64,000 nt of DNA from an uncultured delta proteobacterium (GCA_963709285.1 CAVPVR010000002.1:65491-129490), one strand, 5' to 3'. Shown: positions 9,781 to 57,626, counted from the stretch's first letter. A program made the numbers and translations. Notes: generated by a model from the letters alone, not told the origin.

Positions 9781-10284
9781 TTACCTGAAACGACTGCGCA
9801 CCTTCTCGGTGACGTCCATGGACTTGTTCCGCAAATAAATACCGCCTTTCGGAAAAACAATGTCCAGGTTTTCTTCGTTGGCCACCTGCTCCACCGCCCG
9901 GTTCATCTTATCCATCAGGGGCTTCATTTCTCGTTGGTAGTGATCCTGGAAAGTGCGGGCGGCTTTGTCTTTGGATTGCTGGATGTCGCTGATCTTTTTC
10001 TGGAATTCCGTTTCTTTCCGCTTCAGGGCATCGTCCTTGATGATGCCTGCCTGAGCTTGCTTCTGGAATTCTGCGAGCTGCTGGCCCAGTTCCTGTTCCT
10101 GCCGCTGTAAGGGACGGCCCAGTTCCTCGGACTTTTGCTTCATGCTACTTTCAATGCGTTTGTAATCCGGAGATTTGTTGATGATTTCCTCGATATCCAC
10201 CACTCCGATGCGCACGTCTTTAGCCAGGGCAGGGGTGATCAGTAAACAGGTGATGAAAAGGAAGATTACAGCCAACTTTTTCAT
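9781..10284 (-). CDS. skp: Periplasmic chaperone Skp/OmpH family
   Basis: Signal peptide, a Lys/Glu/Gln-rich coiled-coil body, and a position between bamA and lpxD. Confidence 0.8.
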   Translation of the reverse strand: MKKLAVIFLFITCLLITPALAKDVRIGVVDIEEIINKSPDYKRIESSMKQKSEELGRPLQRQEQELGQQLAEFQKQAQAGIIKDDALKRKETEFQKKISDIQQSKDKAARTFQDHYQREMKPLMDKMNRAVEQVANEENLDIVFPKGGIYLRNKSMDVTEKVRSRFR

Positions 10285-10374
10285 AGATTTTCTCCTTAGG
10301 TATGGGAAGTCTTTGTCAAGGTTTTGTTTTCAGCTTTTCAAGATGGGCCGGTGGCTGTCCGGGATCGTCCCTCT

Positions 10375-13041
10375 TCAGAAAGCGCCGCCGATGGAAAATT
10401 CCCAGGCGCTCTGGCGCTCAAAATCCTTTTTGTTTAGGTTATAGCCCCACTCGACCCGCAGGGGCCCCATGGGTGAAAACCACCGGAAGCCCGCACCGGC
10501 GCTGGTGCGAACATTAGGGTTCAGGGAATCGGTTGTTCCATAGACATTGCCGCAATCGAAGAAAACCAGGCCGACGATCCCATATTTTTTCAGGAAGGGA
10601 AAGGGAAAGCGACACTCCGTGTTGATTTGGAAGAATCGATCGCCGCCGATACGGTCTTTGGTTACGGGGTCCCGGGGACTGATTTCGGCATATTTAAATC
10701 CCCGGATAGAGTCAATGCCCCCCAGGTAGAACAACTCGTAGGACGGTTGCGCCCCGTAATCCAACCCCTGAATGTAGCCCGCCCTGCCATGGAGCACACC
10801 TACCATGCCCCACTTCAAGGGGAAATAGTAAGCCATGTCGGCAATATATCGGATAAAGGCGACGTCGCCTCCCAGACCGGCCCACTCGATGGACAGGCTA
10901 TGGTCCGAGCCACTGGTGGGCAAGAAAAGGGAGTCCCGGGAATCCCGGCGAAGGCCGATGGTCATGGCGCTGGTGGTGCGGATGTCAAGGGCTTCCACAA
11001 TGGCAGGCGTTAACAAAGCGGAATAGCTGAGATCAGTGAGTTTGACGTTCTCAAAACGATAGCTCAGGAAACCCCTGAAGTACTTCCAACGCAGAGGGTG
11101 GGACAGACGGACAGATCCGCCAAAGCTGGTGCGGGTGTATTCGTCGAAAACCCGCGACCAGTTGTAGGCGTCGACGCCAAGGCTTAAAGGACGGTCGAAG
11201 AGATAGGGTTCTATGAAGCTGATCCGATAGCGGGAGGCGATGAACCCGAGAATGGCCTGCACCTGCAGTCGTTGCCCTCGTCCGAACAGATTGTTCTGGC
11301 TGACTTCCACCATGCCCACCAGTTGGTCCTGGGTGCTGTAGCCGACACCCACCCCGAATTGACCAGTGGGCCTTTCTTTGATAGTGACTTTCAGGTTAAT
11401 GCGATCCGGGGCGCTCCCGGGGCTGGTGCTGAGATTCACATCTTCGAAATATTCTAGGCGCCTCAGGTTCCTCATGCTCTCTTTGAGGTTAGTGGCGTTA
11501 AAGAGTTCCTGCTCATAGACCCGCAAATTCCGACGAACCACTTTGTCCCGGGTTTTGATGTTGCCAGCAATCTCGATACGTTCGAAATAAACCTTGTTCC
11601 CCTTACTGATGTCGAAGTTGATATCCACGGTGTGGGCTTGCTCGTCTTCTCTGAGCAGGGGGGTGACGTCGGCGTTGGCGTATCCCTGGTCGGCGTATGC
11701 GTCTGAGAGGGTGGTGATGTCTTTTTGCACCACTTCCCGGCTGTAGATTTTTTCCTTGATGATGCCTAACTTCTTTTTCAGGGTTTCCTTGTCTTCCAGC
11801 AGGTCTCCCTGTAAGTCGACCTTGCCCACCTTGTACTGGGGGCCCTCAGTGATGGGGATGGTAATATAAACCCTTCCCGCCTGGATGTCGACTTTGGGCT
11901 CTCCCACCCTGGCCTTGATATAGCCGTTGTTGAAGTAAAAGGCGCCAATCTTTTCTGCGTCCGCCTCCAAGTTTTCCTGTACCAGCTTGCCCGAGCCGGT
12001 AATTTTGGAGATCAGGGGCAGACCCTTCTCTTTGGTCTCCATGAGCTTTTTGAGCTTACTCGGTTTAAATGCTTGGACGCCTTCGAATTTGATCTCTTTG
12101 ATGGACACCGGGCCCCCCTCGTCGACGTAGAACACCAGGTTGACTTCCTCGGGGGTGACGGGCTCCAGTTTGTGAGTAATGCGGGCCTCGTAATAGCCTT
12201 TCGCCCGATATGGCTTCAAGCCCTTCTCGATGGCTTCCATGATGACGGTTTCAGAGGCCACCGACAGGGTTTTGATTCCCATGGCCTCGAGAAGCGCTTT
12301 CTCCTTAATCTTGCGATTGCCCTGAAAGGTGATGCTGCGGATGGCGGGTTTCTCCGAGACGATCACCATGAGGACCCGGCCCTCGGGGGTGTCGCTCACA
12401 TCGAATTTCACGTCGGTGAAATACCCCATCTTGTAGATGGCTTTCAGGTCTTCCCGCAGGCGTAATGGTGAAATGAGATCCCCCTCCCGGGTTTGCATAA
12501 CCCCTAGGACGGCGTCTGCTTCTATGCGGCGGTTACCTTTCACGGCGAGGCGGTGGAGGCGCTCTTTTCCCAAAATTCGGAGCCCCGCTTCCCCGGCCAT
12601 TTGGCGGCTCATGCCGGTCAGGGAAGAAACCCCCGTTCCCTGGAGTTTCAAGATAACGGGGGCCTGGCGGGCAGTAAGGTCAAAGATGCGGGCTTCTAAA
12701 GAGACCGCTTCCCCGACGAAGATCACCTGTCCGATGATGACCGTATCAGCCCCCAGCTTCCGACCGATCTCCTTGGCCAGGTTTTCATTGAGCGGTTCCT
12801 GCAAGGCTGCGAGCTCTTTGGTCAGTTCTTCTGGGGAGACCATGACAAAACCCTCTGCCTTGAGGCGTTCCACGAATTCCTGGCGTACCTTCTCCCCTAA
12901 ATAGTCCCGAGGAGTTTTGCTCAATACGGTAAAGGGAAAGATGGCCAACTTTTTAAAAGTCAACTCGGGTTCCTGGGCCAGGGTCGGCCCGGTCACCACC
13001 CCAAGCAACAAAAACACTACCACAAGTAGACGTCGCCGCAA
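10375..13041 (-). CDS. bamA: Outer membrane protein assembly factor BamA
   Basis: 888 aa with POTRA repeats followed by a C-terminal beta-barrel ending ...WEFSIGGAF. TTG start. Confidence 0.9.
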   Translation of the reverse strand: MRRRLLVVVFLLLGVVTGPTLAQEPELTFKKLAIFPFTVLSKTPRDYLGEKVRQEFVERLKAEGFVMVSPEELTKELAALQEPLNENLAKEIGRKLGADTVIIGQVIFVGEAVSLEARIFDLTARQAPVILKLQGTGVSSLTGMSRQMAGEAGLRILGKERLHRLAVKGNRRIEADAVLGVMQTREGDLISPLRLREDLKAIYKMGYFTDVKFDVSDTPEGRVLMVIVSEKPAIRSITFQGNRKIKEKALLEAMGIKTLSVASETVIMEAIEKGLKPYRAKGYYEARITHKLEPVTPEEVNLVFYVDEGGPVSIKEIKFEGVQAFKPSKLKKLMETKEKGLPLISKITGSGKLVQENLEADAEKIGAFYFNNGYIKARVGEPKVDIQAGRVYITIPITEGPQYKVGKVDLQGDLLEDKETLKKKLGIIKEKIYSREVVQKDITTLSDAYADQGYANADVTPLLREDEQAHTVDINFDISKGNKVYFERIEIAGNIKTRDKVVRRNLRVYEQELFNATNLKESMRNLRRLEYFEDVNLSTSPGSAPDRINLKVTIKERPTGQFGVGVGYSTQDQLVGMVEVSQNNLFGRGQRLQVQAILGFIASRYRISFIEPYLFDRPLSLGVDAYNWSRVFDEYTRTSFGGSVRLSHPLRWKYFRGFLSYRFENVKLTDLSYSALLTPAIVEALDIRTTSAMTIGLRRDSRDSLFLPTSGSDHSLSIEWAGLGGDVAFIRYIADMAYYFPLKWGMVGVLHGRAGYIQGLDYGAQPSYELFYLGGIDSIRGFKYAEISPRDPVTKDRIGGDRFFQINTECRFPFPFLKKYGIVGLVFFDCGNVYGTTDSLNPNVRTSAGAGFRWFSPMGPLRVEWGYNLNKKDFERQSAWEFSIGGAF

Positions 13042-35235: not shown

Positions 35236-37599
35236 GTGGAACCTGAACTTCGCATCGGCTTATATATCTGTCACTGCGGCCTCAATATCGCCGGGGTCAT
35301 CAGTCCGGAGGCCCTGTCGGTTCAGGGGCAGGGGCTCCCTGAGGTGGCGGTCAGTCGCCATCATTTGTACACCTGCTCCGAAGCCGGCCAAGCCGAGATT
35401 CTGAAAGACATCAAGCACTTTAAGCTTGATCGGGTGGTTATTGCCGCCTGTTCACCCAAGCTTCATGAAGTCACCTTCCGCCGGCTGCTGTCGGAAGCGG
35501 GGCTGAATCCCTACCTGGTGGAAATGGTGAACATCCGGGAGCACTGCGCCTGGGTGCACGCCGGGGAGCCGGAGGCGGCCCAGGAAAAGGCGTTGGAGCT
35601 CATCCGCATGGGGCTAGCCAAGGCGTGTCTGGCGGTCCCCTTGCAAGACCGCCAGGTGCCCATGACCAGGCATGCCCTGGTTATTGGCGGAGGCCCAGCG
35701 GGACTGCGAGCCGCCCTCGATATTGCCCATGCCGGCTACCCCGTAACCCTGGTGGAACGGGAGCCCATCCTAGGGGGCATGGCCAACCGGCTGCATCGCA
35801 CCTTTCCCCGGGGGGAAAGCGCCCTGGCCCTGATCAATCCCCTCATGGCTGCGGTGGCCCTGCATCCCGGCATCCAGGTGCTCACCCAGAGCGAGGTCAC
35901 CGAGGTGAGCGGGCATTTGGGGGAGTTTGCCGTCACGGTGCGGGAGACCCTGCCCCTGGTGGGGGAGGCCTGCGACCGCTGTGGGCACTGTGCTGAGGTC
36001 TGTCCGGTGGTGGTTCCCGATACCGTGGCCGCAGGTCTTGGCACCCGGACTGCCATCTATCTGCCGGCCCCCCATGCTTTTCCCGGCCGCTATGTGGTGG
36101 ATCTGGAGCACTGCGACCGCTGCGGCGAGTGTATAGCTGCCTGTCCCCAGGAGGCCATCAGCCTGGAGGAAGGGGAACGAGAGCATCACCTCACCGTGGG
36201 GAGCATCGTGGTGGCCACGGGCTTCACTCTCTTTGATACGGCGGGGAGCCGCTATGAGAACTGGGCTGACCATCCGGGAGTTGTCACCACGGTGGCCCTG
36301 GAGCGCCTTCTGGCGGGGGCAGGACCCACCCAGGGAAAGGTAAGCCTTGCCGATATTCCAGAAGAGGTGCGGGATGTGGCTTTTCTGCTGTGCGTGGGCT
36401 CCCGGGAGGAGGAGGGCAACCGTTACTGCTCCCGGGTGTGCTGCCCCACGGCCTTGAAGCAGGCCCTGGAGCTGAAAAAACGCCTCCCGGAGGCCCGCAT
36501 TCGTATCTATTACCGGGACATCCGCACCAACAAAAAAGACTGGGAGGCCCTTTACACCGAGGCCCGGGAAGCGGGGGTGCTGTTTTTGCGGGGGCGGGTG
36601 GAGGAAGTAAAAGCCGCCCAAGATGGGGGCCTGCTCATTCGTGCCTTTAACGAGACCTTTCAGGTTCCCACCGAAGACCGGGTGGACCTGGCGGTCCTGG
36701 CCGTGGGCATGGTCCCCGGGAACGGCGCCGCTCTCCGGGAGGTGTTGAAGCTGCCGGTGGGACCGGACGGCTTTTTCATGGAGGCCCACCCCAAGCTCAA
36801 GCCCCTGGAGACGGTGCTGGACGGCATTTTTCTGGCCGGGGCCTGTCAGGGTCCCAAGGACCTGGCCGAATCCTTCACCCAAGGAAGCGGCGCGGCCGCC
36901 AAGGTTCTGGCCCTCTTTGCCCACGAGACCATCACCCTGGACGGCCTGGTGGCCCAGGTGGACCCGGAGGTCTGTGTGGGCTGCGGGGAATGCGCGGCAG
37001 CCTGTCCGTTTCAGGCCATGGAGATGGTGGGGGAGGAAGAAAAGCAGCAGGCCCAGGTAGTTACTGCAGCCTGCAAGGGCTGTGGGGTCTGCGCCGGCGC
37101 CTGTCCTACGGGGGCGGTCATCCCCGCGGGGTTTACGGACGAGATGATCCTGGCTCAGATCGACGAGGCCTTGGCGGAGGCTCCGGAACAGAAAATTTTG
37201 GCCTTTTGCTGCAACTGGTGCTCTTATGCCGGGGCGGACTTCGCCGGGGTGTCGCGGCTGGCCTATCCCCCCCAAGTGCGCATTATCCGAACCATGTGCT
37301 CTGGCAGGATTCACCCCAAGTTTATCCTCCATGCGTTTGAGCGGGGCGCCGGCCAGGTTTTGATCTCCGGTTGCCACCCTCCGGGGGAATGCCATTATAT
37401 TTCTGGAAATCTTAGGGCTCAGGAGCGGGTGGAAAAGCTCCGGCCCAAACTTGCCAAAAAAGGCATCGACCCTTCCCGCCTGCGGCTGGCGTGGGTTTCA
37501 GCCACGGAAGGGAGGGCATTTCAACGGGTCATTGAAGAAATGGCCGCGGCCCTGGAGCCTGAAGAGACGGTCAAACAAGCGAGCGGTCAGGGGAAATGA
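35236..37599 (+). CDS. hdrA: HdrA-like flavoprotein fused to a C-terminal MvhD-like domain
   Basis: LYICHCGLNIAG N-terminal cluster, VIGGGPAGLRAAL FAD motif, CVGSRE, ferredoxin motifs, and a C-terminal ILAFCCNWCSYAGAD...ISGCHPPGECHY (MvhD signature). GTG start. Confidence 0.85.
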   Translation: MEPELRIGLYICHCGLNIAGVISPEALSVQGQGLPEVAVSRHHLYTCSEAGQAEILKDIKHFKLDRVVIAACSPKLHEVTFRRLLSEAGLNPYLVEMVNIREHCAWVHAGEPEAAQEKALELIRMGLAKACLAVPLQDRQVPMTRHALVIGGGPAGLRAALDIAHAGYPVTLVEREPILGGMANRLHRTFPRGESALALINPLMAAVALHPGIQVLTQSEVTEVSGHLGEFAVTVRETLPLVGEACDRCGHCAEVCPVVVPDTVAAGLGTRTAIYLPAPHAFPGRYVVDLEHCDRCGECIAACPQEAISLEEGEREHHLTVGSIVVATGFTLFDTAGSRYENWADHPGVVTTVALERLLAGAGPTQGKVSLADIPEEVRDVAFLLCVGSREEEGNRYCSRVCCPTALKQALELKKRLPEARIRIYYRDIRTNKKDWEALYTEAREAGVLFLRGRVEEVKAAQDGGLLIRAFNETFQVPTEDRVDLAVLAVGMVPGNGAALREVLKLPVGPDGFFMEAHPKLKPLETVLDGIFLAGACQGPKDLAESFTQGSGAAAKVLALFAHETITLDGLVAQVDPEVCVGCGECAAACPFQAMEMVGEEEKQQAQVVTAACKGCGVCAGACPTGAVIPAGFTDEMILAQIDEALAEAPEQKILAFCCNWCSYAGADFAGVSRLAYPPQVRIIRTMCSGRIHPKFILHAFERGAGQVLISGCHPPGECHYISGNLRAQERVEKLRPKLAKKGIDPSRLRLAWVSATEGRAFQRVIEEMAAALEPEETVKQASGQGK

Positions 37600-39218
37600 T
37601 AACCAAGACCCAAGTTCTCTTGTGCGCCTGCCCGGACCTCAAGGTGGAGGTCCAGAACTTGGCCCAACGCCTCTCCCAGGCCGGGCTGAGGGTCGAAGTA
37701 TCCCCGCCTCTCTGCACCCCCGCGGGTTTGGAGGAATGGGGGCCACGCCTGACGGCCGAACCCCGGGAGTGGCTGGTGGCCGCGTGCGGACCGGCACAGC
37801 ATCACGGCCTTTTTCAACGTCTGGCCGGGGATGAACCTCTGGCCATGGTGGATCTCCTAGCCGCAGACGATCTGGAAAGCGCTGTGGCAGCCGTCCTCCT
37901 GGCCCAAAAGGAGGAAATTCGCCTGGTTTCCGCGGGCGCACCCCACAGCCGGGAGGTGCTGGTGGTGGGGGGCGGGGTGGGGGGCTGTCAGGCCGCCCTG
38001 GACCTGGCCAATGCCGGTTTCAAGGTACATCTGGTGGAATCCTCCCTCTCCATCGGTGGCACCATGGCCCAGTTGGACAAGACCTTTCCCACGCTGGACT
38101 GCTCCATCTGCATCCTGGGACCCAAGCTGGTGGAAGCCGCGGCCCACCCCTTGATTGAGCTCCTCACCTTTGCGGAAATCACCGGCATTTCCGGCCAGGC
38201 CGGGCGATTTACGGTGGATGTGACCCTGAAGCCCCGCTATGTGGACATGAGCCGGTGTGTGGGCTGCGGCAGTTGCGTCCAGGTCTGCCCGGTCATTGTT
38301 CCCAGTCGCTGGAACCTGGGGCTCAAGTCCCGCAAGTGCATCCGCATCATTTTTGCGCAGGCGGTGCCCCTTATGGCCACTATCGAAAAAGAATACTGCA
38401 TCGACTGCCAGATGTGCCTTGAGGCCTGTGAACACGGGGCCATTCACCCTTTGTCCCGCCCGGAGGAACGGCGCCTCGAGGTGGGGGCGGTGGTTCTGGC
38501 TACCGGGGCCCGGCCCTTTGACCCGGCCATTCAGAGTGAATACAGTTATGGCCGTCTCCCCGGGGTCCTCACCAACCTGGAGTTCGAGCGCCTGGTGTGC
38601 GCCACCGGTCCTACTCAAGGACATCTCCTGACCCCCGCCGGGCAACCGGTGAAGCGTCTGGCCTTCATCCAGTGTGTGGGCTCCCGGGACCGGCGCTTCC
38701 TGCCCTACTGCTCGGGCTACTGCTGCACTGCGGCCATCAAGCAGGCCATGCTGACCCTGGAGCATGAACCCGACGCCGAGGTCACCATCTTTTTCAACGA
38801 CATCCGCACGTCGGGGAAGGGCTTCGAGGAACTCTATTTGCGGGCCCAAGCCGCGGGAGTGCGCTTTACTAAAGGTCTGCCGGGGCGTATCGAGGCGGGG
38901 GAGGCTGGCAGCCTCATAATCATTTATGAAGATCAGCAAGGCGGCCAGCGGGGCCGTCTGCCCGTGGACCTGGCGGTCCTGTCCGTAGGCCTGACCGCAC
39001 CCCGGGAGGGACTCCCCTTCACAGAGATCGGGCCGGTGCGGGACAACCTGGGATTTTATGACAGCCGGCACCCGATCCTTCATCCCCTGGAGTCCACGGT
39101 GCCGGGAGTCTTTCTGGCCGGCACCGCCCAGGGGCCCCGGGATATTTCTGAAACGGTGTGCACCGGCAGCGGGGTTGCGGCCCGGATCATCAACCTGCTC
39201 AATTCTCTGCCCCAGTAG
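37596..39218 (+). CDS. hdrA: HdrA-like flavoprotein (third paralog, with a distinct N-terminal extension)
   Basis: VVGGGVGGCQAAL, DKTFPTLDCSICIL, CVGCGSCVQVCP and IQCVGSRD motifs. Its start overlaps the upstream stop (ATGA). Confidence 0.8.
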   Translation: MITKTQVLLCACPDLKVEVQNLAQRLSQAGLRVEVSPPLCTPAGLEEWGPRLTAEPREWLVAACGPAQHHGLFQRLAGDEPLAMVDLLAADDLESAVAAVLLAQKEEIRLVSAGAPHSREVLVVGGGVGGCQAALDLANAGFKVHLVESSLSIGGTMAQLDKTFPTLDCSICILGPKLVEAAAHPLIELLTFAEITGISGQAGRFTVDVTLKPRYVDMSRCVGCGSCVQVCPVIVPSRWNLGLKSRKCIRIIFAQAVPLMATIEKEYCIDCQMCLEACEHGAIHPLSRPEERRLEVGAVVLATGARPFDPAIQSEYSYGRLPGVLTNLEFERLVCATGPTQGHLLTPAGQPVKRLAFIQCVGSRDRRFLPYCSGYCCTAAIKQAMLTLEHEPDAEVTIFFNDIRTSGKGFEELYLRAQAAGVRFTKGLPGRIEAGEAGSLIIIYEDQQGGQRGRLPVDLAVLSVGLTAPREGLPFTEIGPVRDNLGFYDSRHPILHPLESTVPGVFLAGTAQGPRDISETVCTGSGVAARIINLLNSLPQ

Positions 39219-39254: not shown

Positions 39255-39283
39255 ACTTTGAGGACTTTGACAAAAGACTTTGG
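39255..39283 (+). promoter_or_regulatory. Three direct ACTTTG(A/G) repeats upstream of the Ubl-like gene
   Basis: AACTTTGAGGACTTTGACAAAAGACTTTGG read directly. The half-site is the same as in the 25907 palindrome. Function unknown. Confidence 0.25.
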
Positions 39284-39297
39284 AAAGGCGAACTAGC

Positions 39298-39672
39298 ATG
39301 TCGGATATTCAGATAAAACCGGAAGAACAACCGAAAAAATTACAAAAACCCTTGCCCCTGGTCCTGGAGATCATTCCCGGGCAGGCCGGGGAGGGGCTCG
39401 TGGTGGTAATGGAGCCAGGGAGCTACGAGGGCAGCACCCTGAGGGAGCTCTGTGATCAGGCTTTGAGCCGCCCCGACTTCAGCATCGAGGAGCGCCAGAT
39501 TTTAGAGGACATCCAGCGGCAGCTTCAGGGTGGCAAGCTCCTTTGCCAGGGCCGGGACCTCGACGGACCCGCCCAGGTCTTCGGAACCGTTGAGGAGACG
39601 GAAGCCGGGGAGGCTTATCTTTATGTGCCTGTCCGGGCCATCAAGCCTCAGGAGGGGGGCCTCTTCCCTTAA
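39298..39672 (+). CDS. Ubiquitin-like (beta-grasp) protein candidate with C-terminal GG followed by LFP
   Basis: 124 aa from the ATG at 39298, with a GGAAAGG RBS 8 nt upstream. It shows a beta/alpha alternation compatible with a beta-grasp fold, ends ...YLYVPVRAIKPQEGG-LFP, and sits in an operon with E2-like, JAB and E1 genes. Confidence 0.5.
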   Translation: MSDIQIKPEEQPKKLQKPLPLVLEIIPGQAGEGLVVVMEPGSYEGSTLRELCDQALSRPDFSIEERQILEDIQRQLQGGKLLCQGRDLDGPAQVFGTVEETEAGEAYLYVPVRAIKPQEGGLFP

Positions 39673-39675
39673 GGA

Positions 39676-40878
39676 ATGGGAACGGGAGCGGGGATGTGGA
39701 GGTGTTTTGAAGCCGACCTGGAAATCCTGGTGCACCGGGGCCACCTGTACCTTCCCCTGGTTTTAGATCCAGAGATCAACCAGGAGATTCAGGCCCCGAT
39801 TTCCCCAAGTTATTCGTGGGATCAATCGCCCGGCGGGCTCAGCCGTTCACCGGTGCCTACGGTCCTGGCTGTCCTGGATAGATGGTTCGTCCAGGCGGTG
39901 AGCGCTTCCTCCCTGGTTGACAACTACGCCCAGCTTTTTCCCCAAGACCACGAAGACCGCCGGCGGACTCTCCGTGAACAATACTCTCTGACCGCGGACC
40001 TCTTTGGGGTGGCCCTGGACCCCCACCTGGTCGCCATCGTTTTTCACATTTTACCCCATTTTCTCAGGCGGGATGGATTTCAGAGACGGCGGCGCTTACA
40101 GGAGGGGGAGGTCCTGGATTTCATCCGGGAGCGAGTCCAGGTGCCCCACTACTTCGACCAACAAGCGCGGAGTTTCCTGGATGTCAATCCTCTGAAGGAG
40201 GCCCTCCGGCGCCTGGAAACCGTTCATCTTGAGCCCAAACCACCTCCAGAGGGATTGGTGCCGGCAGCCGATCTGGGGGCCTGGTGGGAGGAGGTCCTAA
40301 CAGCCCAACTTCTGGCCGAGGAGCGCAACCGCCTCTTCCAGGAGATCGAGGAACGGGAGCACTGGGCCACGGCTCAGGAAAGTCGTCTGGCGGTTCTGCT
40401 CTATTTAGCTCAAAAAGGGTCCCTGGAACTGGACGGCTTCGGGTTCTCCCGGATGAGGCGGGGCCAGGATTACCGGGTTTACAAGCGCACCGGGCCCTAT
40501 GCCCTCCAGGACTTTTATGGCCATTTGTACCTCTTCCCGGATTGCCGGGTGGCGGTCACCACTTTGGGGCGCCTGCGGCCCGTGGTGGTGGATCACTATA
40601 AGCACCCGTTCCTGAGAAGGTACGCTTCTGGCCAGGAAATCTGCATAGGTCCCGAAAGCAGTAATCTTTCTTTTTCGGCAAAAAACGCCATCCAGGTCCT
40701 GGAGGAAGGGATCAACGCGCTCTTGTACAGCTACGACGGCCGGCACCGCGCCGGCTACCACAGACTGTTTGTGCTGCCGGGGATGATGCGACTGGTGGAC
40801 TTCGAAGACATTCGCATCCCGAAGGACCACCCCCTCATCGTCTCAGGGAAAGTGGAAGTGAAGAACCGGGCCACCTGA
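39676..40878 (+). CDS. E2/UBC-like protein candidate with a large N-terminal extension
   Basis: The C-terminal region YLFPDCRVAVTTLGRLRPVVVDHYKHPFLRRYASGQEICIGPES...AIQVLEEGINALLY mirrors the UBC layout (FP..., HPN-like HPF, G-x-x-I-C-[LI], following helix). The candidate catalytic Cys323 codon is at 40642-40644. Confidence 0.45.
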   Translation: MGTGAGMWRCFEADLEILVHRGHLYLPLVLDPEINQEIQAPISPSYSWDQSPGGLSRSPVPTVLAVLDRWFVQAVSASSLVDNYAQLFPQDHEDRRRTLREQYSLTADLFGVALDPHLVAIVFHILPHFLRRDGFQRRRRLQEGEVLDFIRERVQVPHYFDQQARSFLDVNPLKEALRRLETVHLEPKPPPEGLVPAADLGAWWEEVLTAQLLAEERNRLFQEIEEREHWATAQESRLAVLLYLAQKGSLELDGFGFSRMRRGQDYRVYKRTGPYALQDFYGHLYLFPDCRVAVTTLGRLRPVVVDHYKHPFLRRYASGQEICIGPESSNLSFSAKNAIQVLEEGINALLYSYDGRHRAGYHRLFVLPGMMRLVDFEDIRIPKDHPLIVSGKVEVKNRAT

Positions 40879-40879
40879 C

Positions 40880-41287
40880 ATGGACCTTAAGGACTCTTTT
40901 CGCCGGGACCGGCTTCGGGGGAAGGAGAAGGAGCCCTGGGCCCCCTCCCTGTTCTCTCAGGTCGGAGGGCTGGTGCGGCGTCATCGACTGGGAGAGGCAT
41001 TTTGTCAGCTTCTCGGGCAGATGACTACGGCAAGTGCGGAAACCTTAGCGCAGACCCACCGATCTGCTCCCAAGGCCCCTTTCGAGCCACCCCTGTTTTT
41101 TTTGGCCACCGCAGAGGATTATCAGGTGATTCAGAAAATTCTCTCGGGCCTAAACAACCCCTACCTGGCTTGGGCCTGCAGTCCGGAGGAAATTCTTCTG
41201 TCGCCAACCCTGTGGAGCCGGCGTCCCGGCCTTGACCCAGAGGTGCTGGCCACCCACCACTTTGCGGCGTTGCTTTTACATGATTAA
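40880..41287 (+). CDS. Hypothetical protein of the Ubl operon
   Basis: 135-aa ORF starting 1 nt after the upstream stop. No family recognised. Confidence 0.5.
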
Positions 41288-41289
41288 AT

Positions 41290-41340
41290 TTGAGAGGAGG
41301 GCTGGGGGAGCGCGGCTCCCCCACTCTCCCCCCAAAAAAC
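41290..41340. repeat. G/C-tract hairpin repeat copy
   Basis: GAGAGGAGGGCTGGGGGAGCGCGGCTCCCCCACTCTCCCCCC is palindromic and lies between the 135-aa gene and the clpX-like gene. Confidence 0.5.
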
Positions 41341-41364
41341 CTGTTCACATCACAAGGAGTACTC

Positions 41365-42468
41365 ATGCCGAATGGCATAACTGATGAGAAGCGGCGGCGC
41401 CTCGAAGAAAAGATGGAGCAGTTTCGGGAACGTCAGATAGACGAGGCGGTGCAGCACATCCTTGAATTCGACAAGACTCCTACGACCCTGAAGGCCGAAG
41501 TGGACCGGTTCGTCATCGGCCAGGAGAAGGGGAAAAAGATTATCGCCACGGCCATCGCGTTCCATTATAAGCGGCTGGGTGCCGCGTTGAAGCGCACCTT
41601 GGGAGAACACAACGGCAGCATCGAGAGCGCCCTCAAGAGCACCCGTACCCCCAAGGCCAACATCCTCATGGTGGGTCCCACCGGGTGCGGCAAGACCTAC
41701 ACCAGCGAGACCGCCTCGGAGCTGGTGGGGGTGCCCTTCGTGGTAGAGGACATGACCAAGTTCAGCGAGGTGGGCTACGTGGGCATGAATGTCAGCGACA
41801 TCCTGGTGGACCTCCTCATCTCCGGAGACGGCAACCCGAATGTGGCCCAGATGGGTATCGTCTACCTGGACGAAGTTGACAAGATTGCCGCCGAGACCTC
41901 CACCGTCCGGGATGTTTCGGGGAAGGGAGTCCAGAAGGGTCTTCTCAAGCTGGTGGAGGGGGTGGACAACACCCTGGAGATCGGCAAGGAGCGTTTCTCT
42001 CTTTCCACCAAGCACGTGCTGTTTATTGCCGGGGGGGCTTACGACAGCCTGGAAGGCATCGTCAGGAAGCGCCTGGCCCGCCTGAATGTGACGGGCGACT
42101 GGCGGGACCACCTGGCCACCGAGGACCTGGTTTCCTTCGGTATGGAGCGCCAGCTTGTGGGCCGCTTCCCGGTCCGGGTGGTGTATGATCGCCTCACCAC
42201 CCAGGAACTCCAGGACATCCTGACCAAGAGCGCCGACAGTCCCCTCCGGGCTTACGTCCAGGACCTGGAAAGCTGGGGCATCGACCTGAAATACACCGAG
42301 GAGGCCCTGGGGGAGATCGCCCGCCGGGCCAAGCGGGAGGGCACCGGGGCCCGGGGACTGGTGGGCATCCTCCACCGGGTGCTGCTCGAGGACATGTTCC
42401 GCCTACCCGGCAACTACACGGGAGAGCTCATGATGGACGGAGCCTACATCCGGGAGAAACTGGGATGA
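41365..42468 (+). CDS. ClpX-like AAA+ unfoldase lacking the Zn-ribbon, RKH and IGF (ClpP-docking) elements
   Basis: VIGQEKGKK, Walker A GPTGCGKT, pore loop GYVG, Walker [30 protein letters not shown], and sensor region GARGL. There is no N-terminal C4 domain and no GIGF motif. A CAAGGAG RBS precedes the ATG at 41365. Confidence 0.85.
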
Positions 42469-43262
42469 GGTTCAAGGCCCTCAAGGACCTGAGCCGGACG
42501 GCGCCCCAGGAGATTGTGCTGGCCTCTCTCCCGGAGCAGGTCCTGATGACGGACTTTGCCAAAGCCAAGGCCTTTGCGGTGAGTGAACTGGTGCGCCGGG
42601 TGCATGGGGAGGCGTTCGAGTGGTACGGCTTCACCCTGGCGGAGCGGGCCCGGCCGGAGGTCATCGTGGATGTGGGGCTTCCCGAAAACGACGAGAACCA
42701 GGAGACTTACACCAGCATCAGCCCGGAACGTATTGCAGCTTACCAGGAAACCCTACCGGCCGGGCAGATAATCAACGGCTGGCTCCACTCCCACGGCGCT
42801 CTGGAGTACCGTCAGTTCTCCCCGGTGGACGACCTCAACCAGGCGACGGTGCTGGACTACGTCACTTCCCTGCTCAAGATGCCCGTGGCCAAAAAGGAGG
42901 TGGTGATCCGGGATTTGACCTTCCTGTTGTTGGATGAGGAGGAGGCCGCAATCCAGGCCGCAGGCAGCGTCACCCTCCTCACCGATGTGCCGGTGGGCCG
43001 GGCCAAACTCCTGGAGACCATTTATGGGGGCTTCTGCTTCGGCATGGTCATCGGTGACAAAGGCTGGACCAAACAGGAGATCCATTACAAAACCCGGGGC
43101 GTCCTCACCGGCGAGACCCTGGTGAGCAAACGGGAAGCCGACCTGACCCTGGTGGCAACCGGGAAAAACCTCACGACCTCGGACCTGGAGGCCCTGGAAC
43201 TGGAGGTCAAGGAACGTATCCGACCCATTACCTATACCCCGGAAAAGCTGGAGCGGGGGTAG
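42465..43262 (+). CDS. JAB/MPN+ (JAMM) metalloprotease-like protein
   Basis: Upstream Glu (GEAFEWYGF) and [18 protein letters not shown] (H-x-H-x8-S-x2-D, one residue longer than the canonical x7), encoded at 42786-42830. Its start overlaps the clpX-like stop (ATGA). Confidence 0.7.
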
Positions 43263-43432: not shown

Positions 43433-44431
43433 ATGATTGAGTCTTGCGTATGGCGCCGCCTTTGTCGTCCCGAGGTTGGGATTCCGAACTCGATAAGTGA
43501 TCTGATTGCCCGGGAAGAATGGCTGAAAGGGGATTTTTTAACTTCCGTACGTATGGGGCCAACACTATTTATAGCGAGTGATTATGGTGGAGCGCACAAG
43601 GGTGCTGTATATGAGACCCTCTCGTTTCTCATGGCCGACTTGACATATGTTTGGTTATTTGACGAATTGCGTACAAAGCTACGCAATGAAGCGGTTCTAA
43701 AAAGTCGCCGTATGGCATACAAATCTTTAGGCGACCGTCGGAGACAAGAAGCACTTGTGCCGTTTCTTCGATCGGGTAACACGATCCCGGGACTTCTAAT
43801 GAATATTGTATTAGATAAAAACGCCTCCCAATTACTTTCAGAATCCTATCAACCTAAATTTGCCTTTGGCGAACTTAGCCATTGGTGTAAAGGGTCCTTT
43901 GAAAAACTCACGCGCGTTGGACAACTGGGAGCGATGCTTGTTGAGGGAATGTGCGCTCCAGGTCAGAATGTATTATGGATTTCTGACGAAGATGAGATAG
44001 CGCCAAACAGAGAGAAGTTGTTTGAGGCAACTAACGTTTTAGGCCATTACCTGAATCATTTCTGTTCTAATCAGATGGGGCACATGAGATTTGGAACTAC
44101 AAACGTGGACAATGGCAACCTCCGAATTGAAGATCTTGTCGCGCTCGTTGATCTTGCAGCTGGATGCCTCTCGGAGATCTTTACGCAAACGATGAAACTG
44201 TTTGGAAGCCCTGCAAGCAAAATCCTTATACCTGGGACGCACTCGTCATCTAAGAAAGCAAGAATTATTGCAAATTGGATGGCCCAGGGTAATCATCCTC
44301 TGAAGAAGCTAATCGTGTTGGTTGAAGCTCAAAATAATTCTTATATCACGAAAGTCGTAAACTTTTATCCAGAAGGCACAACAAACATTTTCGACTGGGT
44401 AGCCGATTTCGAGGAGTTGCTCAGAAATTGA
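43433..44431 (+). CDS. Hypothetical protein on a low-GC insertion
   Basis: 332-aa ORF, visibly AT-richer than its neighbours and preceded by a 170-bp AT-rich spacer. No family recognised. Confidence 0.6.
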   Translation: MIESCVWRRLCRPEVGIPNSISDLIAREEWLKGDFLTSVRMGPTLFIASDYGGAHKGAVYETLSFLMADLTYVWLFDELRTKLRNEAVLKSRRMAYKSLGDRRRQEALVPFLRSGNTIPGLLMNIVLDKNASQLLSESYQPKFAFGELSHWCKGSFEKLTRVGQLGAMLVEGMCAPGQNVLWISDEDEIAPNREKLFEATNVLGHYLNHFCSNQMGHMRFGTTNVDNGNLRIEDLVALVDLAAGCLSEIFTQTMKLFGSPASKILIPGTHSSSKKARIIANWMAQGNHPLKKLIVLVEAQNNSYITKVVNFYPEGTTNIFDWVADFEELLRN

Positions 44432-44497
44432 CTACTTCTAACTCTTTGAATTGTTTGACGTTTTAATATGTTAGCATCTTAGCGTTAGAATGTGAGT

Positions 44498-44728
44498 ATG
44501 AAGAATTCACCGAAACGAGCCACCATCTACTTCGAATCCGACCTGCACCGGGCCTTACGGGTGAAGGCGGCGGAGGTGGGCCAGTCGATGTCCGAACTGG
44601 TCAATCAGGCGGTGAAGCTTTCCTTGGCCGAGGACGCTAAGGATATAGCGGCCTTCGAGGAGCGCCAGCACGAACCCAGCCTGCCCTTTGAGGACGTCCT
44701 GAAAGACCTCAAGATAGGGAAGGGCTGA
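44498..44728 (+). CDS. Ribbon-helix-helix (CopG/antitoxin-like) protein, orphan
   Basis: KRATIYFESDLHRALRVKAAEVGQSMSELVNQAV is a typical RHH beta-strand plus two helices. No adjacent toxin ORF is seen. Confidence 0.7.
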   Translation: MKNSPKRATIYFESDLHRALRVKAAEVGQSMSELVNQAVKLSLAEDAKDIAAFEERQHEPSLPFEDVLKDLKIGKG

Positions 44729-44734
44729 GAGCAA

Positions 44735-44820
44735 GTCCCCCTTTGACAAAGGGGGATTTAGGGGGATTTTCGAGGGGTCAGGAAAAATCCCCTGACCCCC
44801 CTTTATTAAAGGGGGGGATT
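44735..44820. repeat. Family A nested-palindrome element, copy 2 (inverted)
   Basis: Its reverse complement aligns with 45058-45140 and 29466-29549 (…CCCCCTAAATCCCCCTTTgtcAAAGGGGGAC). Confidence 0.8.
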
Positions 44821-44852
44821 TTAAGCATAGGATATGCTAAGGAGCATTAAGG

Positions 44853-45041
44853 ATGGCAGAGCATTGGTGTAAAACCTGCTTTTTCAGAGGCCAATATGAC
44901 AAAAACCCCCAGTCATTGTTGGGGAGATTGTGGAAATGGCATGCCAACTGGTGCCCGGGCTGGAAATCCTACATGAGATCCATCCCGGATGAGGAACGCC
45001 TGGAATTAGCCGAAAAATATGATTTACCCAAATTCAGGTGA
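44853..45041 (+). CDS. Hypothetical small CxxC protein
   Basis: 62 aa reading MAEHWCKTCFFRG...WCPGW, with an AAGGAG RBS upstream. It is bracketed by inverted family A repeats. Confidence 0.45.
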   Translation: MAEHWCKTCFFRGQYDKNPQSLLGRLWKWHANWCPGWKSYMRSIPDEERLELAEKYDLPKFR

Positions 45042-45218: not shown

Positions 45219-46721
45219 GTGACCTTGCCTGAAAACACCTATTTATCCCGGGATGAAGCAACTCCGGACGAGCGCCTGGACCGGCAGGTGCGCATTCCGG
45301 GGTGGAACCAGGAGGCGTTGGCCCAGGCCCGGGTGGGGGTGGTGGGAGACGACCCCTGGCTCACTGGCCTGGTGGTGACTTCGGCTGCGGCCCTGGGAAT
45401 CAACCGGCTGACGGTGGTGGCCCCGGACCTGGACCCCCGCTTGCTCTCGGCGACCCGGGGGCTTAATCCGGAGTTCAACCTTGCCTGGTTCCCAGGCTTT
45501 TTCAGCCATTCCCTCCTGGAGGACCTGCTCCGGGAATGCACCGTCCTGATTGACCTGGGCCACCACGGCCTGGCCACCAAGCTCCTCCTCAATCTGGCCC
45601 AAAGGAAAGGTCTCCCCCTGGTGCGGGCGTCTGACTTTGAGGAGGATGGGGTGGCGGGCCTCAGGCTCTTCACCTATCAGCCAGGCCGGGAATGGCGGGA
45701 ACTCCTGGAAGTGCTTCCTCAAGCCCAACTTCCTTCCCGGTGTCAGGGCGACCCGGTGCTGGCTCTGGTCACGGTGGGGCTGGTTCTCGAGGAAACCAAA
45801 AAGCTCCTCCTGGGGGAGGCGGTAACACCGGAGGTGATCTCATACTCTCGGGCCAGCTTAAAGACATTTAATTTGAGGGAGAGGGCTAGGGGCCGTGAGC
45901 CCCTACCCCCTCCCTCAAACTCCCTCCCCCAACCCCTTAAGGGGGAGAGAAATGCTGTAAAGTCGGGGCAAGCTGCCCCGACTTTACAAGCACATTGCGG
46001 GATGGGAGGGGGGCTTGATGGGAAGAAAGGGACCGGTAGCATGGGCTTCCAGCCCGTGGCACCCTGGCCTTACCCTCATGAGCTCATTTTTCTGGATTCC
46101 CCCATCGCGGTGGTGGGCGCCGGGGCCCTGGGGAACTTTGTGGCGTTGGGGTTGGCCGCTCTGGGCTTCACCCGCCTCACCTTTATCGATCCGGACCCGG
46201 TGGAGGTCACCAATCTGAACCGTCAGGTTCTCTTCTGGGACGCCGTGGGACAGCCCAAGGCCGAGGCGTTAGCAGAAAAAATCAAGGAGTGGTTCGGGGT
46301 GGCGGTCAGGGCTGACACGACATACATCACCCGGGAGACTGACTTGCGCGAGTTTGCCGTGGTGTTCGACTGCACGGACAATTTTGCCAGCCGCATTATC
46401 CTGAGCGAAAAGTGCCGGGAATATGGCCAAATCCTCATCAGCGGCGGCACCGGGGTGGAGGCCGGACAGGTAGTGGTCTTCGACCCCGCGCAAGGCGGCC
46501 CCACCCCCGCAGAGCTTCTGGGGCTTTATGACATCGTGGGACAGCGTGACATCGACGTCAAAGAGCGGGAACGGGCCTCCTGCGTCTATGCCCCTGAAGC
46601 CGCCATAATCATGACCAACCAGATCGTCGGGGGCCTTATGGTGGACACCCTGAGAAGACTGCTTACGGGAGAGCCGGCACCCAACCTCTTCTACGACGCC
46701 CGGAGTGAAAGGATGATTTAG
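45219..46721 (+). CDS. E1-like (ThiF/MoeB/UBA family) activating enzyme with a degenerate N-terminal and an intact C-terminal adenylation domain
   Basis: The C-terminal half, IAVVGAGALGNFVALGLAALGFTRLTFIDPDPVEVTNLNRQVLF...FDCTDNFASR, is a classic ThiF fold. The N-terminal half has a Rossmann-like layout but a degenerate loop (VGVVGDDPWLTG). GTG start. Confidence 0.8.
   Translation: MTLPENTYLSRDEATPDERLDRQVRIPGWNQEALAQARVGVVGDDPWLTGLVVTSAAALGINRLTVVAPDLDPRLLSATRGLNPEFNLAWFPGFFSHSLLEDLLRECTVLIDLGHHGLATKLLLNLAQRKGLPLVRASDFEEDGVAGLRLFTYQPGREWRELLEVLPQAQLPSRCQGDPVLALVTVGLVLEETKKLLLGEAVTPEVISYSRASLKTFNLRERARGREPLPPPSNSLPQPLKGERNAVKSGQAAPTLQAHCGMGGGLDGKKGTGSMGFQPVAPWPYPHELIFLDSPIAVVGAGALGNFVALGLAALGFTRLTFIDPDPVEVTNLNRQVLFWDAVGQPKAEALAEKIKEWFGVAVRADTTYITRETDLREFAVVFDCTDNFASRIILSEKCREYGQILISGGTGVEAGQVVVFDPAQGGPTPAELLGLYDIVGQRDIDVKERERASCVYAPEAAIIMTNQIVGGLMVDTLRRLLTGEPAPNLFYDARSERMI
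45873..46062. repeat. G/C-tract hairpin repeat modules inserted in frame inside the E1 gene
   Basis: TTGAGGGAGAGGGCTAGGGGCCGTGAGCCCCTACCCCCTCCCTCAAACTCCCTCCCCCAACCCCTTAA matches the intergenic element at 57548-57616. It also contains the hairpin AAAGTCGGGGCAagcTGCCCCGACTTT and a GGCTTCCAGCCCGTGGCAC motif. Confidence 0.7.
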
Positions 46722-52354: not shown

Positions 52355-52385
52355 TCCTTAGGGCTTGGGTGATAAGGTAATACAA

Positions 52386-52637
52386 ATGGAAATCCGCCAT
52401 TACAAATTCCCTCGCATTACGTTGAATCCTGAAATGTGTTTCGGCAAGCCCTGTATTCGTGGGCTGAGAATTCCAGTGGCAACTATTCTCAACTACTTGG
52501 GTTCAGGGATGACTATAGAGGAGATCTTGAGGGAATGGCCTGAACTGGAAAAAGAGGACATTCATCAGGCTCTCGGCTATGCAGCCTGGGCTATGGAAGA
52601 GAGAGTGGTGTCTTTGGAAGAAACAAGAGCCCCATGA
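52386..52637 (+). CDS. DUF433 antitoxin-like protein
   Basis: [49 protein letters not shown] is the characteristic DUF433 core. Its stop overlaps the next start. Confidence 0.75.
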
Positions 52638-52999
52638 AATTCCTCCTAAACATGAACCTTCCTCGTTCCTTGGGGAAGAGCCTGGAGGGAGTGGGGCATG
52701 AATGCCGTCATGCAGGGGATATAGGCTTATCCCAGGCGATGGACATTGATATCATGACTGAGGCTGGAAGAAGGAAAGAAATCATCCTTACGCATGACCT
52801 AGATTACGGTCACCTACTAGCGTTTTCCGGAGATACGGCCCCTTCTGTGGTCATTTTTCGTTTGCGGAATAGCCACCCTGACAGGCTCTTTGCCCGCCTA
52901 CTAGCAGTTTGGCAGGAAATTGACAAGCCCTTGCAGGAAGGGTCAATTGTTATTTTAGAAGACACAGCAGTAAGGATTCGGAGATTACCCATTTCCTAA
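52634..52999 (+). CDS. DUF5615 (PIN-like/Mut7-C-like) toxin candidate
   Basis: [10 protein letters not shown]...[12 protein letters not shown] pattern, the usual partner of DUF433. 4-nt overlap (ATGA). Confidence 0.7.
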
Positions 53000-57482: not shown

Positions 57483-57567
57483 GACTGCCCCCTTGATAAT
57501 TTTTGGAGCAGTCTATCATATTACTCATTAGAACGCAACTTAGTATTAGGGGGTTGGGGGAGGGAGC

Positions 57568-57614
57568 TTGAGGGAGGGGGCCAGGGGTCTGTGACCCCTG
57601 GCCCCCTCCCTCAA
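57568..57614. repeat. Perfect 21-bp-stem G/C-tract hairpin (reference copy of the family)
   Basis: TTGAGGGAGGGGGCCAGGGGT-ctgtg-ACCCCTGGCCCCCTCCCTCAA, lying between the IS630 end and the Nfu-like gene stop. Confidence 0.8.
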
Positions 57615-57626
57615 ACCAATATTTCA

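Follow-up and report, generated by a model that had tools for sequence, protein, structure and literature searches.

What does a bacterium do with a protein in which two copies of the ThiF-type adenylation fold are joined in one chain, the first of them decayed? Does such a protein prepare a sulfur carrier, as its annotation in databases implies, or is it an activating enzyme (E1) for the conjugation of a ubiquitin-like protein (Ubl)? The question is raised by a gene on the plus strand, at positions 45219..46721, of a stretch of 64,000 nucleotides from an uncultured delta proteobacterium (GCA_963709285.1, CAVPVR010000002.1:65491-129490), referred to below as the window. An earlier reading of the sequence, here called the original prediction, saw in it a single-chain pseudo-dimeric E1 with a degenerate and an active adenylation domain, in the manner of eukaryotic E1s and of those of the bacterial Bil and Bub systems. 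A computational follow-up is presented here. According to this analysis, the protein is probably the minimal single-chain, pseudo-dimeric activating enzyme of a conserved six-gene Ubl system that is coupled to an unfoldase. It is apparently a minimal variant of the pseudo-dimeric architecture and the marker of a widespread, uncharacterized system made of a Ubl, an E1, an E2-like protein, a JAMM peptidase and an unfoldase.

The gene is one uninterrupted open reading frame (ORF) of 500 codons with a GTG start, and its product is laid out as an inactive adenylation domain (IAD), a linker and an active adenylation domain (AAD). The AAD (residues 290-500; 46086..46721, plus strand) is the easier half to recognize. 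Pfam ThiF (PF00899) matches residues 293-488 with an E-value of 8.6e-39 and 133.5 bits against a cut-off of 28.1, and the NCBIfam models for ThiF (102 bits against a cut-off of 275) and MoeB (95 against 266), together with UbaA, match the same half below threshold. The nucleotide loop VVGAGALGN, of the GxGxxG type (nucleotides 46110-46136), and the NLNRQ motif (46212-46226) are intact as first described, every peptide quoted in the original prediction lies where it had been placed, and DCTDN follows at 46368-46382. Conservation was assessed on 62 orthologous E1s from cluster-bearing genomes or loci, aligned to the window protein as reference. The residues for ATP and magnesium G300, G302, G305, D324, N332-Q336, K347 and D387 are kept in 62/62 orthologs and D384 in 61/62, so that all of them are present in a C-terminal half that opens directly at strand 1, with no RxxRQ finger helix ahead of it. 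The AAD ends the protein. Neither a rhodanese nor any other extra domain was found by Pfam and NCBIfam scans, in agreement with the original prediction, which had taken the missing rhodanese as an argument against a MoeZ-type sulfurtransferase.

The N-terminal half, the IAD (residues 1-216; 45219..45866, plus strand), is a degenerate copy of the same ThiF/E1 adenylation fold. The Pfam annotation that recognizes the AAD finds nothing in residues 1-216. A profile built from 20 sequences over these residues and run against 177,635 distinct sequences of the PDB has a sole significant match, E. coli MoeB (E-value 4.6e-5), and the alignment is colinear, pairing profile positions 9-166 with MoeB residues 9-188, from the RYNRQ helix to the DCTDN region. 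This likeness to the ThiF fold exceeds chance. A direct comparison of the two halves of the protein by hhalign is also colinear, over 159 columns, but weak (E-value 0.02, reported probability 2.3%). The original prediction had described a similar layout with a degenerate glycine-rich loop, and both features are visible in the motifs RLDRQ (nucleotides 45273-45287, with R19, R22 and Q23) and RVGVVGDDPWL (45330-45362), the latter having GDDxxL in place of GxGxxG. The NLxRQ motif is gone, only the first Asp of DCTDN is matched in the alignment with MoeB, and the magnesium-binding Asp130 is left with no counterpart.

Predicted structure extends this result to the whole chain. The AlphaFold2 model, computed from 31 homologs, has a mean predicted local distance difference test score (pLDDT) of 80 and a predicted template-modelling score (pTM) of 0.82, with values above 90 in the N-terminal domain and disorder limited to residues 1-15, 220-282 and 453-457. 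The superposition on known E1s proposed in the original prediction was made with Foldseek against the PDB, and the best 50 matches are all single-chain pseudo-dimeric E1s (Uba1, UBA6 and UBA7), with E-values down to 1e-16, query-normalized TM-scores (TMq) of 0.49-0.58 and about 600-650 aligned columns in nearly all. Both halves must superpose on these E1s, because a domain of about 210 residues alone would cap TMq at about 0.42 for a query of 500 residues. The profile match and the structural matches place the N-terminal half within the Rossmann/ThiF fold, and sequence, predicted structure and conservation together bear out a degenerate domain followed by an active one in a single chain.

The degeneration of the two halves is complementary, in that the IAD keeps the arginine finger and the AAD keeps the residues for ATP and magnesium. 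R19, R22 and Q23 of the IAD are kept in 61/62 orthologs, and R22 aligns with R14 of MoeB in the profile alignment of the N-terminal half. In MoeB, the ATP site is completed by Arg14 of the partner protomer. In BilD, the E1 of the bacterial Bil system, Arg9 of the IAD completes the ATP site (PMC10557695). The complementary loss would fit one active site, located in the AAD and completed by the IAD.

The two halves are joined by a proline-rich linker (residues 217-289; nucleotides 45867..46085, plus strand) that is disordered (pLDDT below 50 at residues 220-282) and specific to one clade. The connector interval, reference residues 212-296, holds 84 residues in the window protein and about 11 in 55/62 orthologs. 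An expanded form occurs only in the window's own clade, where relatives have 78, 59, 26 and 19 residues in the same interval, and the basic form of the E1, without it, is 413 residues long. The possibility that the ORF is really two genes is ruled out because the frame is continuous and orthologs exist in which the connector has 11 residues, both halves being present in 62/62. The linker DNA (45865-46085) is a run of GC-rich hairpins of the form TTGAGGGAG..GGGGC-loop-GCCCC..CTCCCTCAAA, together with a 16-bp perfect inverted repeat at 45955-45989, and folds with a minimum free energy of -92 kcal/mol over 166 nucleotides. A second copy of the element lies at window positions 57540-57620 (related sequence at 57550-57616), probably between genes, and relatives of it are present in related loci (L005 11676-11749, 16343-16424 and 17141-17304; L008 9393-9550 and 11610-11685), with copies in intergenic DNA, for example in L005 and L008 in the gap between two genes of the cluster described below, those for p135 and the ClpX-like ATPase. 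On the most plausible reading, a dispersed palindromic element was inserted in frame into a connector that tolerates it, and the linker is not a domain. A CYS-like or other domain is ruled out here by disorder, clade specificity and origin from a repeat. The element itself looks like a palindrome of the repetitive extragenic palindromic (REP) or miniature inverted-repeat transposable element (MITE) kind and is reminiscent of the Rickettsia palindromic elements.

Where the catalytic cysteine of such an E1 might lie is suggested by position. Cys455 (nucleotides 46581-46583, within RASCVYAPE) is kept in 60/62 orthologs and sits in the crossover loop (residues 424-463; nucleotides 46488-46607), about 40 residues made of two short helices and a low-confidence loop that carries it. 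This last part, residues 441-463, lies between the last strand pair of the AAD and the helix 464-482, and its low confidence in the model suggests that it is flexible. By its position, C455 is a candidate catalytic cysteine, and it corresponds to the crossover-loop position of C187 in MoeB and C184 in ThiF; the segment is about 14 residues longer than that of MoeB. The cysteine flagged in the original prediction stands as regards its place in the crossover and its conservation, but the CYS-like insertion does not, the loop being short, like those of MoeB, ThiF and UBA5, and free of any inserted domain. No CYS/SCCH insertion is present in the E1, with only about 40 residues between the last strand of the AAD and the next helix; the FCCH domain is absent; and there is no UFD, since the chain ends 7 residues past the last AAD strand (residues 490-493 of 500). 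The architecture is an IAD-AAD with a loop cysteine, a pseudo-dimer like BilD and Uba1 with the catalytic geometry of small homodimeric E1-like enzymes.

The genes that accompany the E1 indicate its setting. A survey with a 400-residue partner protein of the window as bait, against one genome per GTDB species, gave 80 loci, and genes were counted by tblastn of the window proteins against 84 loci. The 400-residue E2-like protein is matched in 81/84, a 135-residue protein (p135) in 77/84, a 130-residue Ubl-like protein in 74/84, a ClpX-like ATPase in 69/84, the E1 in 67/84 and a JAMM-like peptidase in 64/84; absences are mostly due to contig ends or masked sequence. Gene losses in L043 and L045 were rejected as real, the stretches concerned being masked with N. 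All six genes share one strand. Five of them follow each other as Ubl, E2-like, p135, ClpX-like and JAMM, and the E1 comes immediately before the Ubl gene or after the JAMM gene. In an unbiased clustering of the ORFs of the loci, the families with the widest distribution are precisely these six. Neighbouring genes often overlap, the start codon of one running into the stop codon of another, as in the window and in L069; three such overlaps are present in Desulfoferrobacter suflitae. The hosts are the representative genomes of 80 species, mostly Thermodesulfobacteriota, and the loci nearest to the window come from metagenome-assembled genomes (MAGs) of Syntrophobacterales and Desulfobaccales. 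In L001, a distant ortholog, homologs of the genes that precede the E1 in the window come immediately after the E1 instead. As a side observation on this locus (9974-11093 and 11207-11578), its 400-residue gene is split into ORFs of 105 and 240 residues and a gene of the 23S_rRNA_IVP family is inserted between the split gene and p135; the system may be in decay in L001.

What the analysis shows directly comprises the domain identities, the asymmetric state of the E1 halves, the conserved motifs and the gene linkage. The cluster as a whole is apparently undescribed. Scans of the window's five partner proteins against Pfam, NCBIfam and PADLOC gave no match except for the ClpX-like ATPase. In the literature available as full text, subscription papers lying outside the scope of the search, no description was found of an operon that joins an E1, a Ubl, a JAMM peptidase and a ClpX-like ATPase, and Iyer et al. 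2006 make no mention of this one.

The candidate modifier is encoded at 39280..39672 (plus strand), adjoining the E2-like gene, as a precursor of 130 residues whose sequence ends in VRAIKPQEGG followed by LFP. The conserved core spans residues 25-127, up to and including VRAIKPQEGG, and KPQEGG is effectively invariant in all intact homologs read from the loci. It is then followed by 0 to more than 20 unconserved residues: the protein ends exactly at GG in five species, has one extra residue in others and up to more than 20 elsewhere. Judged from its sequence, this C-terminus has the signature of a processed Ubl or sulfur-carrier precursor. A peptidase is encoded at 42465..43262 (plus strand), by a gene whose start overlaps the stop of the ClpX-like gene in an ATGA junction. 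Its product, of 265 residues, is a divergent JAMM/MPN+ metallopeptidase in which the metal and catalytic motif E52, H108-S-H110, S119 and D122 does not vary among 17 aligned sequences and is kept to at least 95% across 64. Prok-JAB of Pfam is matched by 10/17 family members (best E-value 1.7e-4), while the window protein itself reaches an E-value of 0.23 and 11.8 bits against a cut-off of 25, and the family profile has no significant match in the PDB by HMMER.

Between these genes lie those for the E2 candidate, p135 and the ATPase. The E2 candidate (39676..40878, plus strand) has 400 residues and a C-terminal domain at about residues 235-351. Its invariants among 30 sequences are YKHPF (H310-P311-F312) and GQxIC (C323), together with C290 and H362, and the spacing of about 10 residues from HPF to the cysteine is that of the HPN-type E2 pattern, a resemblance of pattern only. 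The protein p135 (40880..41287, plus strand) is a conserved core member, always located between the E2-like and ClpX-like genes, and has no family match in Pfam, NCBIfam or PADLOC. The ATPase (41290..42468, plus strand) is a ClpX-paralogous AAA+ unfoldase. It matches the NCBIfam ClpX model with 267 bits, under the equivalog cut-off of 359, and aligns to the ClpX of H. pylori with 204 bits. The Walker A and B motifs, the GYVG pore loop and the sensor motifs are intact. Aligned with ClpX structures, the protein lacks 14 residues exactly where the GIGF loop would be and 5 residues at the RKH loop, and the zinc-binding N-domain is missing, alignments beginning past it and no cysteine occurring in the first 60 residues. 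The score and the loop deletions rule out a housekeeping ClpX. Because the IGF loop is deleted, the ATPase should not dock ClpP, as expected from established ClpX biology.

It is at this point that a role in sulfur-carrier activation, the function implied by the databases, can be judged. The E1 family comprises more than 800 matches, which come from MAGs of Thermodesulfobacteriota, Binatia and the like and bear no annotation beyond ThiF or MoeB, and its label in the source databases is molybdopterin/thiamine adenylyltransferase. In that role, the E1 would adenylate the GG-ended protein for conversion into a thiocarboxylate, as in the pairs MoeB-MoaD and ThiF-ThiS or in the pathway of CysO with the JAMM protein Mec+. 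The closest PDB sequences to the E1, as to each of its halves, are MoeB, ThiF and Uba4, its cysteine, like those of MoeB and ThiF, is carried by a short crossover loop, and GG-ended carriers with tails trimmed by a JAMM protein are known in CysO- and QbsE-type pathways, all of which speaks for such a function. However, the zinc-binding CxxC pairs of MoeB and ThiF are absent, the only conserved cysteines of the C-terminal half being C399 and C455. Among the families common to the 80 loci, there is no sulfurtransferase, rhodanese, MoaE, ThiG or CysM-type consumer, nor any MoaD/MoaE or ThiS/ThiG linkage. Moreover, an obligate one-site pseudo-dimer, an AAA+ unfoldase and an E2-like cysteine protein have no role in known sulfur relays. 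Activation of a sulfur carrier is consequently considered quite improbable, and the gene context speaks strongly for a conjugation-type E1 rather than a sulfur enzyme of the MoeZ/MoeB kind.

For a conjugation pathway, a mechanism can be proposed, in which the chemical steps, the β-grasp fold of the tag, the part of the E2-like protein, the targets and the coupling to the unfoldase are all suggested by analogy. The JAMM peptidase would trim the variable tail of the 130-residue Ubl precursor and expose KPQEGG. The AAD would bind ATP and magnesium in a site completed by Arg22 from the IAD helix, as by the trans-acting arginine in MoeB and BilD, and would adenylate the terminal glycine of the tag. 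Cys455 on the flexible crossover loop might then take the Ubl as a thioester, from which it would move to Cys323 of the E2-like protein and finally to lysines of targets. The ClpX-like hexamer, unable to dock ClpP, would engage and unfold the conjugates, while the JAMM peptidase would recycle the Ubl, an arrangement modelled on Rpn11 and the Rpt ring.

Several observations weigh against this scheme. Concerning the tag, whose β-grasp fold is presumed, no signal was obtained against Pfam, against the PDB (HMMER profile) or against ubiquitin or MoaD (hhalign). Concerning the E1, the placement of R22 in the ATP site of the AAD is read from the alignment only. In the window, about 2 kb with three inserted genes separate this gene from its cluster, and in the Desulfobacca loci L002-L004 it stands alone, with no cluster nearby, ahead of the PGI, HisK and sigma-54 genes that it also precedes in the window; co-expression in the window is not assured for these reasons. 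Concerning the unfoldase, ORF clustering reveals no protease partner among the shared families around the cluster. Concerning the E2 candidate, searches of the 400-residue family against the PDB and Pfam with HMMER gave no match, and hhalign against UBE2D2, UBC9 and UBC13 (the UBE2D2 query having been checked against the PDB) found no similarity, the best result being an E-value of 0.44 on an unrelated segment. Foldseek returned nothing significant for the model, and its best E2 match has an E-value of about 1.1, a probability of 0.33 and target-normalized TM-scores (TMt) of at most 0.38.

These negative results on the E2 candidate bring in the idea that tagging is E2-independent, as with archaeal SAMP and UbaA or TtuB and TtuC of Thermus, and that the 400-residue protein is something else, namely a substrate adaptor, an E3-like scaffold or a Cys/His enzyme (with C290, H310 and H362), for instance a peptidase or a transglutaminase-like ligase. 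Beside the lack of a significant sequence or fold match to any E2, three further invariant Cys/His residues accompany C323, and about 230 N-terminal residues have no recognizable fold, as this idea would allow. Against it, the HPF-x(10)-GQxIC spacing fits the UBC layout, as does the order of secondary structure in the AlphaFold2 model (a helix, 4-6 strands, the HPF/Cys loop and a long helix), which is reminiscent of the UBC fold; UBC E2s, accounting for 8/50 of the best weak Foldseek matches, are the only recurring fold; and distant relatives with nothing but the HPF...C domain in common retain the motif. These relatives came from an exhaustive representative search, and as none of them carries a Pfam domain, they provide no transitive link to known E2 families. 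On balance, E2-independent tagging seems rather unlikely, and an E2 role of the 400-residue protein is probable from its motif and predicted layout. In a separate observation, one distant relative of 483 residues, with only the C-terminal HPF...C domain in common, is followed directly by a 398-residue AAA_2 ATPase (L085 4-2665); an E2-like domain and a ClpX-like ATPase may therefore be paired outside this operon family as well.

A further reading keeps the chemistry of conjugation and assigns it to defence against phages or mobile elements, as in Bil, Bub and type II CBASS, with the unfoldase as an effector acting on tagged proteins of the invader. The characterized bacterial operons with E1, E2, JAB and Ubl are indeed all involved in defence or suspected to be (PMC10557695, PMC11601596). 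A protein with a metallo-β-lactamase (MBL) fold accompanies the cluster in 27/84 loci, and genes of the ribbon-helix-helix (RHH) type and other small genes are inserted in the window cluster, which also points in this direction. The inserted stretch (43433..45041, plus strand) holds three non-core genes, for proteins of 332, 78 (RHH antitoxin-like) and 62 (Cys/Trp-rich) residues, and has a lower GC content of 0.53-0.55. The first has no counterpart in any of the 84 loci and no family match, and the other two are shared only with 5 close relatives; the Pfam matches to RHH are weak. The defence reading is weakened by PADLOC, which finds no system-level match, only generic E1-domain matches to Cap2 models for the E1 and nothing for the other five proteins. 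Searches of 72,556 plasmids and 50,697 phage genomes gave no match to the 400-residue protein. The cluster, found in the genomes of 80 species, lies near core metabolic genes (Hdr-like and PGI), and its chromosomal neighbourhood looks vertical rather than island-like. A defence role is accordingly judged unlikely.

Other genes of the neighbourhood deserve mention. In the window, two genes for HdrA-like FAD/iron-sulfur oxidoreductases (35236-39218) lie directly upstream of the Ubl gene, and since an HdrA-like gene has the same position in 7 related loci, the cluster of the window's clade belongs to a conserved energy-metabolism neighbourhood. Beyond the E1, overlapping ORFs of 90 and 121 residues (52365-52999) resemble what is presumably a pair of DUF433 antitoxin and PIN-like (DUF5615) toxin. 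The MBL-fold protein, which also carries tetratricopeptide repeats (TPR), has about 420 residues and is encoded within 10 kb of the cluster in the loci concerned (for example L011 430-1692, L016 2195-3430, L023 1813-3009 and L069 1162-2427), the window not being among them. In at least 7 loci its gene is directly upstream of the Ubl gene (once of the E2-like gene) on the same strand, and it is usually paired with a conserved protein of about 140 residues (21 loci). It may be an accessory module, recalling the MBL genes of other bacterial E1/E2/JAB operons. A predicted coiled-coil protein of about 90 residues, with the motif ..EREYLELR..NE.L.AKVKYL.KR..LEK..PW...LWG.PHG, is found in 32/84 loci (for example L017 4809-5078, L027 5831-6100 and L016 5365-5697), none of them in the window's clade. 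Where mapped, its gene is on the same strand, in the cluster or at its edge (before the E1, after the E1, or between the E2-like gene and p135), and it is a seventh, optional component. Finally, loci of the Syntrophobacteraceae type (L069 3608-6133, and L068, L075, L078, L079 and L082) carry, at a distance of a few kb from the cluster, one Amidoligase_2 gene and two GATase_4 genes, a set predicted to be another one for peptide ligation or tagging.

The system could tentatively be regarded as a chromosomal housekeeping Ubl pathway of free-living anaerobes, which may include Thermodesulfobacteriota, Binatia, Methylomirabilota and some others. In such a pathway, a minimal IAD-AAD E1 and a non-canonical E2 would tag proteins, and the ClpX-like unfoldase and the JAMM isopeptidase would process the conjugates. 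If this is true, bacteria would possess their own equivalent of the eukaryotic ubiquitin system's Rpn11/Rpt or Cdc48 branch, and the E1 would represent an evolutionary stage at which protomer asymmetry preceded the gain of a CYS domain. With its 11-residue connector and its putative catalytic cysteine on a short loop, the E1 family is a second and simpler bacterial solution to the IAD-AAD arrangement after BilD, and because of these two features it is a plausible intermediate between homodimers of the MoeB/ThiF type and canonical E1s. Since the E1 is constantly accompanied by a GG-ended tag, a JAMM peptidase and a ClpX paralog independent of ClpP, one may ask whether bacterial Ubl tagging is coupled to AAA+ unfolding elsewhere than in the actinobacterial Pup system. 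Biochemistry and proteomics are feasible, because one of the hosts, Desulfoferrobacter suflitae DRH4, has been isolated in culture.

Comparison with known systems places the E1 between several families. To MoeB and ThiF it is related as the nearest sequence relative of each half, by the short crossover loop with a cysteine just before the next helix, and by an ATP site completed by an arginine that comes from the partner protomer in these enzymes. They differ in being one-domain homodimers with two active sites and CxxC zinc sites that serve sulfur carriers, whereas here two domains are fused and one is inactivated. MoeZ and Uba4 differ by the fusion of the E1 to a C-terminal rhodanese. UBA5 is, like the window protein, a small E1 devoid of a CYS domain, and its catalytic cysteine is on the adenylation domain itself. 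It is a minimal homodimeric E1 (PMC11601596), a true homodimer working in trans, in contrast to the asymmetric fusion seen here. Uba1, UBA6 and UBA7 share the IAD-AAD pseudo-dimer with a single ATP site and are the best structural matches over both halves, but reach about 1000 residues with FCCH, SCCH (CYS) and UFD domains, all of which the window E1 lacks.

The two partners of the tag can be compared likewise. The pairing of a JAMM peptidase with an AAA+ unfoldase in a Ubl pathway recalls Rpn11 and the Rpt ring and the archaeal set of SAMP, JAMM and AAA proteins, as a functional analogy only, since the window ATPase is of the ClpX/HslU lineage and not of that of Rpt, PAN or Cdc48, and no peptidase chamber is encoded nearby. 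ClpX is the nearest family of this ATPase, with which it shares the GYVG pore and the Walker and sensor motifs, and from which it is set apart by a score under the equivalog cut-off and by the lost zinc N-domain, RKH loop and IGF loop.

Among bacterial conjugation systems, Bub (BubCD, BubBD) likewise combines a Ubl, an E1, an E2 and a JAMM peptidase that processes the Ubl precursor (PMC11601596). The E1s of Bub, which the original prediction had cited as single-chain comparators, proved unsuitable as such: they are homodimeric, have no catalytic cysteine and form Tyr and Ser oxyesters, with a tyrosine in the crossover loop and a catalytic serine in the E2 (PMC11601596), whereas the window E1 is a pseudo-dimer with a cysteine. 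Bub operons also carry the DUF6527 protease BubE (PMC11601596); DUF6527 has no Pfam match in the proteins of the window cluster, and no further widely shared family exists around it. The comparison with Bil and with eukaryotic E1s, on the other hand, holds, on account of the shared IAD-AAD pseudo-dimer (PMC10557695). Single-chain IAD-AAD E1s were held to be a eukaryotic hallmark until BilD was described, which was reported as the one exception in bacteria (PMC10557695); the original prediction had called the fusion a hallmark of protein-conjugating E1s. Of the known bacterial E1s, BilD comes closest to the window protein. It has the IAD-AAD arrangement with a key arginine from the IAD and neither FCCH nor UFD (PMC10557695), and it is encoded with a Ubl, an E2 and a JAB/JAMM peptidase. 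Its own features are a mobile helical CYS domain of about 80 residues in the crossover loop and a four-cysteine zinc site, both absent from the window E1. Compared with the Bil operon, the window cluster adds a ClpX-like unfoldase and p135, its E2 candidate is not recognizably UBC by sequence, and its context is unlike a defence island. The cluster falls outside the definition of Bil by four genes (Ubl, UBC-type E2, JAB and IAD-AAD-CYS E1), but functional analogues of all four may be present in it.

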